Of a DNA stretch of 64,000 nt, positions 7,277 to 8,524 are shown in pieces (positions within the stretch are counted from its first letter, which is position 1; each line of letters begins with the position of its first letter). This DNA comes from Escherichia coli (GTDB lineage Bacteria; Pseudomonadota; Gammaproteobacteria; Enterobacterales; Enterobacteriaceae). Both the position numbers and the translations under genes were made by a program. The DNA is taken from assembly GCF_016903815.1 (NCBI RefSeq), contig NZ_CP069973.1, one strand, 5' to 3'. The notes under the pieces were generated by a model. The model searched no databases and was not told the DNA's origin. It saw only the letters and a program-made list of their open reading frames with translations.

Positions 7277-8524
7277 ATGCTACCATCTATTTCAATCAAC
7301 AATACCAGCGCAGCTTACCCAGAATCCATCAATGAAAATAACAATGATGAAGTTAATGGATTAGTACAAGAGTTCAAAAACCTTTTTAATGGTAAGGAAG
7401 GAATAAGCACCTGTATTAAACATTTGCTTGAGCTTATAAAAAACGCCATGCGAGTAAACGACAATCCTGATAGATTTAATATTAATAATTCCTCAGTTAC
7501 TTATATTAATATTGATTCCAATGATACAGACTATATTACTATTGGTATCGATAACCAAGAACCAATAAAATTACTTGCGAGCTATAAAGACAAAGAACTC
7601 GCCCGTACTATCATTAATGACAACATAGTTGAGAAGACTCATGATGATATAAATAATGCTGAATTTACTGATGGTAGTATCGTTGTTAGTGGTAATGAGG
7701 GTGCTATTGACTCCAATGATACAGCCGATATTACTAGTGGTATCTATAATCAAGAACCAATAAAATCACCTACGAACGATGAAAACAAAAAAGTCGGCCA
7801 AACCATCATCCATGAAAATGTAGTAGAGAATACTCATGATATCAATAACAAGGAAATGATCTTCAGCGCATTAAAAGAAATATATGATGGAGATCCTGGT
7901 TTTATCTTCGATAAGATATCACAAAAACTCAGACATACGATAACGGAATTTGATGAGAATGGGAAAAGCGAACCAACGGACTTATTTACCTGGTACGGTA
8001 AAGATAAAAAAGGCGATTCTCTCGCTATTGTAATTAAAAATAAAAACGGAAATGATTACTTATCTCTCGGTTACTATGATCAGGACGACTACCACATTCA
8101 AAGAGGAATTCGTATTAATGGTGATAGTCTCACCCAATATTGTAGTGAAAAAGCCAGGAATGCTTCAGCGTGGTTTGAAAGCAGTAAAGCTATCATGGCA
8201 GAATCATTTGCAACAGGTTCCGATCATCAGGTTGTAAACGAGCTCAACGGGGAAAGACTGAGAGAGCCAAACGAAGTTTTTAAACGTTTAGGTCGAGCAA
8301 TAAGATATAATTTTCAAGTGGACGATGCAAAATTTAGACGCGATAATGTAAAAGAAATAATTTCTACTTTAGTCGATAACGAAGTTGACCGTTCTCAAAA
8401 TAAATATGACCACTTTAAGGAAATCGAAGATAAAGTTGAAAAAAGGCTTCAAAATCGCCAGGCTAAATATCAAAATGAAATTAATCAACTATCTGCATTG
8501 GGTGTTAATTTTGATGATAATTAA
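7277..8524 (+). CDS. yfdF: Hypothetical Asn/Asp-rich protein (YfdF-like) with internal tandem repeat
   Basis: 415-aa ORF, AT-rich, between fadL and mlaA as yfdF is in E. coli; contains two copies of a ~65-aa repeat. Confidence 0.55.
   Translation: MLPSISINNTSAAYPESINENNNDEVNGLVQEFKNLFNGKEGISTCIKHLLELIKNAMRVNDNPDRFNINNSSVTYINIDSNDTDYITIGIDNQEPIKLLASYKDKELARTIINDNIVEKTHDDINNAEFTDGSIVVSGNEGAIDSNDTADITSGIYNQEPIKSPTNDENKKVGQTIIHENVVENTHDINNKEMIFSALKEIYDGDPGFIFDKISQKLRHTITEFDENGKSEPTDLFTWYGKDKKGDSLAIVIKNKNGNDYLSLGYYDQDDYHIQRGIRINGDSLTQYCSEKARNASAWFESSKAIMAESFATGSDHQVVNELNGERLREPNEVFKRLGRAIRYNFQVDDAKFRRDNVKEIISTLVDNEVDRSQNKYDHFKEIEDKVEKRLQNRQAKYQNEINQLSALGVNFDDN

Follow-up and report, generated by a model that had tools for sequence, protein, structure and literature searches.

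The length of the protein encoded between fadL and mlaA differs among strains of Escherichia coli, and the question raised by this locus is whether the longer form has acquired an internal segment, as it has been described in the literature, or whether the shorter form has lost one. The stretch of DNA analysed here, referred to throughout as 'the window', comprises 64,000 nucleotides of E. coli contig NZ_CP069973.1 (assembly GCF_016903815.1), and contains on its forward strand, at positions 7277-8524, an intact open reading frame for a small acidic protein (415 amino acids, 47.2 kDa, pI 4.8) in the middle of which lies an imperfect tandem repeat of two units.

This reading frame is yfdF (termed icaT in Shigella), because it is situated between fadL (5565-6911, forward strand), on its left, and mlaA (8703-9458, reverse strand, convergent with fadL), on its right, and because its product displays 89% protein identity to that of the RefSeq-annotated K-12 yfdF outside of a 65-residue gap. 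The order fadL-yfdF-mlaA found in the window recurs in RefSeq loci, where the shorter allele is annotated as yfdF and the two-unit form carries only the label 'hypothetical protein'; the gene has also been described under the names gem1 and icaT (PMC9241512, PMC9769918, PMC10383432). Strains 7/2 and CH10268 each possess an allele that is 100% identical to that of the window over its full length. At 80-100% nucleotide identity, matches that cover no less than 80% of the gene occur in 4,265 E. coli genomes. At the sampled loci MlaA is usually one and the same RefSeq protein, and several of them also share the same FadL protein.

The gene resides in an AT-rich islet of 1,738 nucleotides (6924-8661), located between the fadL stop codon and an inverted-repeat terminator (AAAAAAGGTGAGTTTTGTGACTCACCTTTTTT, 8662-8693) that is common to the convergent fadL and mlaA genes and forms the right edge of the islet. 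The GC content of the islet is 0.353, versus 0.507 in fadL and mlaA together, and that of the yfdF gene is 31-37%. In two empty-site genomes (L017 and L018) only TTAATAAG is found in place of the islet, followed by the shared terminator with one base changed, and it is this arrangement of the fadL-mlaA gap that defines the extent of the element. The islet as a whole behaves as a presence/absence polymorphism, being missing in ~21% of genomes; it sits just upstream of the fadL/mlaA hairpin and replaces 8 nucleotides, with neither repeats nor mobility genes noticed at either end. Upstream of yfdF the islet also contains a 63-codon reading frame with a TTG start (6994-7185, forward strand) that is probably spurious.

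A first-pass annotation of the window had described two adjacent copies of a unit of ~190-195 bp, beginning near 7511 and 7706, and the strings that it quoted do start at exactly those two positions. Self-comparison of the gene places the core of recognizable homology at 7510-7645 for the first unit (A1) and at 7705-7840 for the second (A2, which reads ADITSGIY), the two forming a gapless direct repeat on the forward strand with 81% identity over 136 nucleotides and a spacing of 195 nucleotides. That spacing is a multiple of three, and both copies occupy the same codon phase of the reading frame, such that the repeat is in frame. Off the diagonal, the highest self-match score of the gene (58, at an offset of 195) lies far beyond chance when set against 300 codon-shuffled versions of the same gene (mean 11.1, standard deviation 1.2, maximum 16; z = 37.8). 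A reading of the sequences themselves extends the homology to ~160 nucleotides with two small indels (THDDINNAEF versus THD-INNKEMIF), which does not fully cover the 195-nucleotide period. After ~7650 or ~7669, according to how the indels are treated, the first period closes with a linker that runs to 7704 and has no clear counterpart after the second copy; the structure therefore amounts to ~1.7-1.8 copies. The tail of the first unit together with the linker (DINNAEFTDGSIVVSGNEGA, 7646-7704, forward strand) is confined to two-unit alleles and has no in-register match after the second copy. Tandem Repeats Finder reported no repeat in the window, as is to be expected of fewer than two full copies at high divergence.

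In the translated units, aligned in register, 27 of 65 residues are the same. The description of the repeated segment as ~65 residues long and rich in asparagine and aspartate holds with respect to its period of 65 codons and to the composition of its units (23-26% Asn plus Asp), but that richness is not special to the repeat, as the protein as a whole contains 21%. The notion that the similarity of the two units reflects chance, low sequence complexity or an assembly artefact, for which the low GC content and skewed amino-acid composition of the gene and the silence of Tandem Repeats Finder might be cited, was rejected and deserves almost no credence, given the z value against composition-preserving shuffles and the recurrence of the two-unit arrangement in 1,226 independent complete genomes.

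The first-pass annotation further stated that the YfdF protein of K-12 is shorter, and suggested that the number of units might vary between strains; alignment of alleles, as it had proposed, bears out both points. The K-12-type protein (allele L001) is 352 residues in length and aligns end to end with that of the window except for window residues 121-185. Its deficit corresponds to exactly one 195-nucleotide period, positions 7637-7831 (or, equivalently, 7646-7840), while a separate indel of 6 nucleotides near the 3' end of the gene brings the net difference to 189 nucleotides. In a survey of 5,426 complete E. coli genomes, yfdF was present in 4,294 by a whole-gene search; 1,226 genomes, in which coverage of the 195-nucleotide insert is 80% or more, carry two units, and ~3,060 of the 4,286 matching genomes do so through the first unit only and thus carry one. 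The alleles are therefore uniform neither in unit number nor in length, contrary to what would have refuted the first-pass reading. The site is empty, with the whole islet absent, in ~1,130-1,150 of the surveyed genomes, and three units (more than two matching places) were found in none of the 5,426.

The two-unit alleles fall into two classes. The class to which the window belongs has the linker SIVVSGNEGA and a second unit reading ADITSGIY, and 536 genomes match its insert at 95% identity or more; the commoner class combines the linker IIVSGIDDRSDIG with an (ATTGAT)n tract in its second unit. Indels distinguish the linker of the window type from the commoner IIVSGIDDRSDIGI type.

The relative age of the duplication was examined by comparing the units of 16 alleles. 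Identity across those alleles is at least 92.9% among first units and at least 89% among second units, whereas it is only 76-82% between first and second units; the units thus group by their position in the gene, which indicates that the duplication predates the diversity of the alleles. A recent duplication was rejected on related grounds, since the synonymous divergence between the two copies (dS 0.28) exceeds that between alleles (at most 0.147).

It might nevertheless be supposed that a one-unit, K-12-like gene is ancestral and that the lineage of the window gained its second unit by a later duplication. The additional segment has been described as an 'internal addition' in strains of phylogroups D and E (PMC9241512), one-unit alleles are the majority, and no outgroup was found with which to root the alleles: among 1.84 billion cluster representatives a HMMER search recovered nothing but orthologues and fragments, none below 53% identity, and of 352 matches to peptide patterns in species-representative genomes none encodes a relative. 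Polarity must therefore be read from internal evidence, and that evidence makes a later gain highly improbable: (i) the two copies are ~20% apart, which is more than the divergence of any pair of alleles; (ii) the lone unit of one-unit alleles shares 93-99% identity with first units and 76-82% with second units, and is accordingly a first unit, where a pre-duplication unit would be intermediate; (iii) one-unit alleles hold no sequence from which the linker could have been derived; and (iv) two-unit alleles span the deepest divergences among alleles, and one-unit alleles nest inside that diversity.

The manner in which a unit was lost is suggested by the deletion junction. The nonanucleotide ACTCATGAT is present at the 3' end of each unit (7637-7645 and 7832-7840, forward strand), and in all seven K-12-type one-unit alleles sampled and read base by base a single common junction, GAGAAG joined to ACTCATGATATC, falls within this microhomology, although independent deletions through the same microhomology would give an identical junction. 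Over the 300 nucleotides past the junction, these seven alleles are 99.7-100% identical to each other and 99.3-99.7% identical to the two-unit allele L002; divergence among the seven reaches 6% in the 5' parts and 10% in the distal 3' parts. Approximately 3,014 genomes match within the 90-95% identity band, into which, among the matches listed, the K-12-type junction falls at 92.5%. A two-unit allele with a first unit of K-12 type (99.2%) exists in Shigella boydii (L021), and the removal from it of the 195 nucleotides between the copies of ACTCATGAT yields a reading frame of 1,059 nucleotides, which is the length of the K-12 gene.

The history most consistent with these observations would begin with an in-frame tandem duplication of 65 codons (195 bp) in an ancestral yfdF/icaT gene, before the alleles of E. 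coli and Shigella diverged, with the window allele as an intact two-unit descendant. One period would then have been lost by slippage or by recombination between the units, a mechanism that we infer from the junction; the deletion would be essentially a single event that subsequently spread, with recombination meanwhile shuffling the distal portions of yfdF. Nearly all one-unit alleles would, on the sequences compared, trace to that single old deletion. The alleles are mosaics, and this weakens tree-like arguments on the order of events; the window allele is itself composed of a 5' part that is 99.4% identical to allele L003 and a 3' part that is 99.5-100% identical to L009. Comparison of the window with alleles L001-L016 shows such recombinant mosaicism to be general, and the alleles to be unusually diverged, by up to ~17% in the distal 3' third of the gene.

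Several rarer changes have accumulated in the same part of the gene. In strain HS-02 (L010, 1271-2330), a whole unit has been deleted independently, on a background resembling that of the window and of L009, through a junction that reads GAGAAG, AAAAAAA and ACTCATGAT and shifts the reading frame; seven extra A residues are carried at that junction. Two metagenomic alleles encoding 397 residues have lost part of the linker and of the beginning of the second unit. In an allele of Shigella flexneri (CP058771.1; L020, 1501-2754; P0091), the second unit perfectly reproduces the allele's own first unit, which is of K-12 type: the two are identical over the first 132 nucleotides from the start of the unit, up to ACTCATGAT, and a linker of the window type lies between them. 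Once one period is subtracted, this allele is identical to K-12 over its first 743 nucleotides. The arrangement is indicative of gene conversion or of out-of-register recombination between units, and the units of yfdF do therefore interact, albeit rarely. Finally, the (ATTGAT)n tract in the second unit of alleles L007 (1132-2424), L003, L008 and L002 encodes ~1-6 Asp-Ile pairs, such that the second unit spans 180-234 nucleotides and the protein 410-430 residues; at the corresponding position (7737-7754) the window reads AGTGGTATCTAT.

Such events, clustered in the linker and at the start of the second unit, could be taken to signify a hotspot of recombination or slippage at which length changes repeatedly under selection, for example through diversification of a secreted protein exposed to the host. 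The second whole-unit deletion with its different, frameshifting junction, the partial deletion, the variable tract and the homogenized units would all be accommodated by that proposal, the product is a substrate of type III secretion in Shigella (PMC9241512), and yfdF was flagged by one published scan as being under positive selection (P = 0.041; PMC3882776). Whole-unit changes are nevertheless rare: the HS-02 junction occurs in one of the 5,426 complete E. coli genomes, the homogenized arrangement of S. flexneri in none of them, and three units are never seen. Window-like alleles (at least 95% identical) number ~540 by the whole-gene search and 536 by the insert search, which suggests that all such alleles keep the insert; the window allele is without the microsatellite; and the frequent pseudogenes and dN/dS values described below are explained equally well by drift. 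We regard the proposal as unlikely on balance. Its more specific version, in which the 65-residue unit would be a functional module of a protein secreted by the type III system, and in which an in-frame length hotspot, formed by the linker together with the beginning of the second unit, would be maintained by selection on host interaction or immune recognition, is in our estimation very unlikely; were it correct, one-unit and two-unit IcaT would be expected to behave differently after secretion. Two related descriptions were considered and rejected. A phase-variable or contingency locus does not correspond to two long units that are 81% identical, present once or twice per genome and subject to in-frame deletion, and an actively expanding and contracting array does not correspond to one or two units with copies ~80% alike and one independent deletion among 5,426 genomes.

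The yfdF gene is under weak constraint: the median dN/dS is 0.68 among alleles and 0.79 between the two copies, although values of ~0.7 could also arise from a mixture of constraint and positive selection. Pseudogenized alleles, with premature stops, frameshifts or insertion sequences, were met repeatedly. The allele of an O157:H7 strain (L005, 1501-2745) has a premature stop, and L012 and L014 have internal stops; IS1 stands in place of most of the gene in L006, IS1 or ISEc20 lies under the match in H36, H151 and H152, and IS903B is found beside a truncated fadL in L002. Because the gene evolves under weak constraint, we infer that the number of units most likely constitutes a length polymorphism that is close to neutral, and not a regulated or selected switch. 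Taken as a whole, it is probable that the two-unit gene is ancestral, that the 352-residue form is derived from it by one old deletion, and that variation in unit number is nearly neutral.

With respect to function, the sequence of YfdF offers little guidance. Searches of Pfam and NCBIfam returned noise only and no family, and a PDB sequence search gave no match beyond a weak coiled-coil similarity (E = 0.4); as no relative outside of the orthologue group was recovered among the 1.84 billion cluster representatives, the protein is an orphan. A weak homology to IS256-type transposases has been suggested (PMC9241512), and is not supported here, in that the same Pfam, NCBIfam and PDB searches detected no transposase domain. 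AlphaFold2 models of the 415-residue and 352-residue forms have a mean pLDDT of 39.7 and 47.0, respectively, which is too low for a comparison of folds. In both of these poor models the first unit is predicted as three short strands and a helix (pLDDT ~54-62), while the linker and second unit are modelled, unreliably, as coil (pLDDT 22-26).

More has been established regarding the expression and secretion of the shorter form. H-NS silences the gene in both E. coli and Shigella. The gene is missing from most B2 strains and has been regarded by its investigators as a possible fossil gene (PMC9241512, PMC9769918, PMC10383432). In S. flexneri, icaT is activated by MxiE and IpgC via a MxiE box (PMC9241512, PMC9769918), and its product undergoes type III secretion through its N-terminal 20 residues, the removal of 5-20 of which abolishes secretion (PMC9241512). 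The first 20 codons of the window gene (7277-7336, forward strand) encode residues identical to those of K-12, and would represent the counterpart of the Shigella secretion signal. A candidate MxiE box, TGAGCGTTTTTTGATAG, is located at 7204-7220 on the forward strand, 57 nucleotides upstream of the start codon; it has four mismatches to the consensus GTATCGTTTTTTTANAG, and a search of the whole window with up to three mismatches returned no site. The motif is invariant in 16 of 16 alleles, the coding regions of which differ by up to 10-17%, and it may correspond to the box published for yfdF/icaT; its conservation agrees with the published claim of a box retained even in E. coli strains that lack MxiE.

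The variation described here is real, but is of an ordinary kind, affecting the length of a gene that is poorly conserved, and both the gene and its difference in length were already present in the literature. The present analysis adds the identification of the extra segment as one unit of a repeat, an order for the events, the population frequencies and a few rare secondary events. The principal consequence is that the 352-residue YfdF/IcaT studied to date would be a deletion derivative, and that the published 'internal addition' is more aptly regarded as ancestral. Approximately one in five complete E. coli genomes carries the two-unit form, including the sampled O157:H7 and O145:H28 strains and the lineage of the window, and the existence of both forms is relevant to tests of IcaT function, to the raising of antibodies and to typing of the locus. 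The significance of these findings beyond such bookkeeping is small, save that the locus provides a compact and clean case of an old intragenic duplication followed by a loss that was apparently mediated by microhomology, and by allele mosaicism.

Three known systems invite comparison. The nearest is the gene's own counterpart, the K-12 YfdF (b2345) and IcaT/Gem1 protein described by Silue and Campbell-Valois (2022, PMC9241512) and by Hall et al. (2022, PMC9769918), which occupies the same fadL-mlaA locus and AT-rich islet and shares with the window the protein identity, the identical N-terminal 20 residues and the invariant MxiE-box-like motif described above. The window allele encodes 415 residues with two units, whereas the form that was studied encodes 352 residues with one; the published secretion and silencing results were obtained with one-unit alleles, and the size expected for tagged Shigella IcaT (44 kDa) fits the one-unit form. 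Both the two-unit form and the premature stop of O157:H7 are among the published features that were observed again here. The earlier study (PMC9241512) treats the extra segment as an addition, without describing it as the second copy of a tandem repeat, while the present evidence points to the short form as the derivative.

A second comparison is with repeat-based variation in bacteria more generally. The in-frame units of yfdF, the number of which depends on the strain, resemble the variable-number tandem repeats of bacterial surface and secreted proteins, and the (ATTGAT)n tract in the second unit of other alleles acts like a small in-frame microsatellite of the kind found at simple-sequence contingency loci. 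Contingency loci contain many near-identical short units, the number of which shifts at high frequency and thereby switches expression; yfdF differs from such systems in having only one or two long units that are ~80% identical and stable within lineages, and in lacking a frameshifting on/off switch.

The closest mechanistic parallel is with the short-homology (microhomology) deletions that arise between direct repeats in bacteria by replication slippage, independently of RecA. The K-12-type deletion resembles these in the loss of exactly one period, in a junction within the 9-nucleotide ACTCATGAT, in the 195-nucleotide distance between the repeats and in the in-frame product. It differs in that the mechanism is here read from the junction alone; homologous recombination between diverged units would leave the same product, as would loss from an allele in which the units had previously been homogenized, such as that of S. 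flexneri CP058771.
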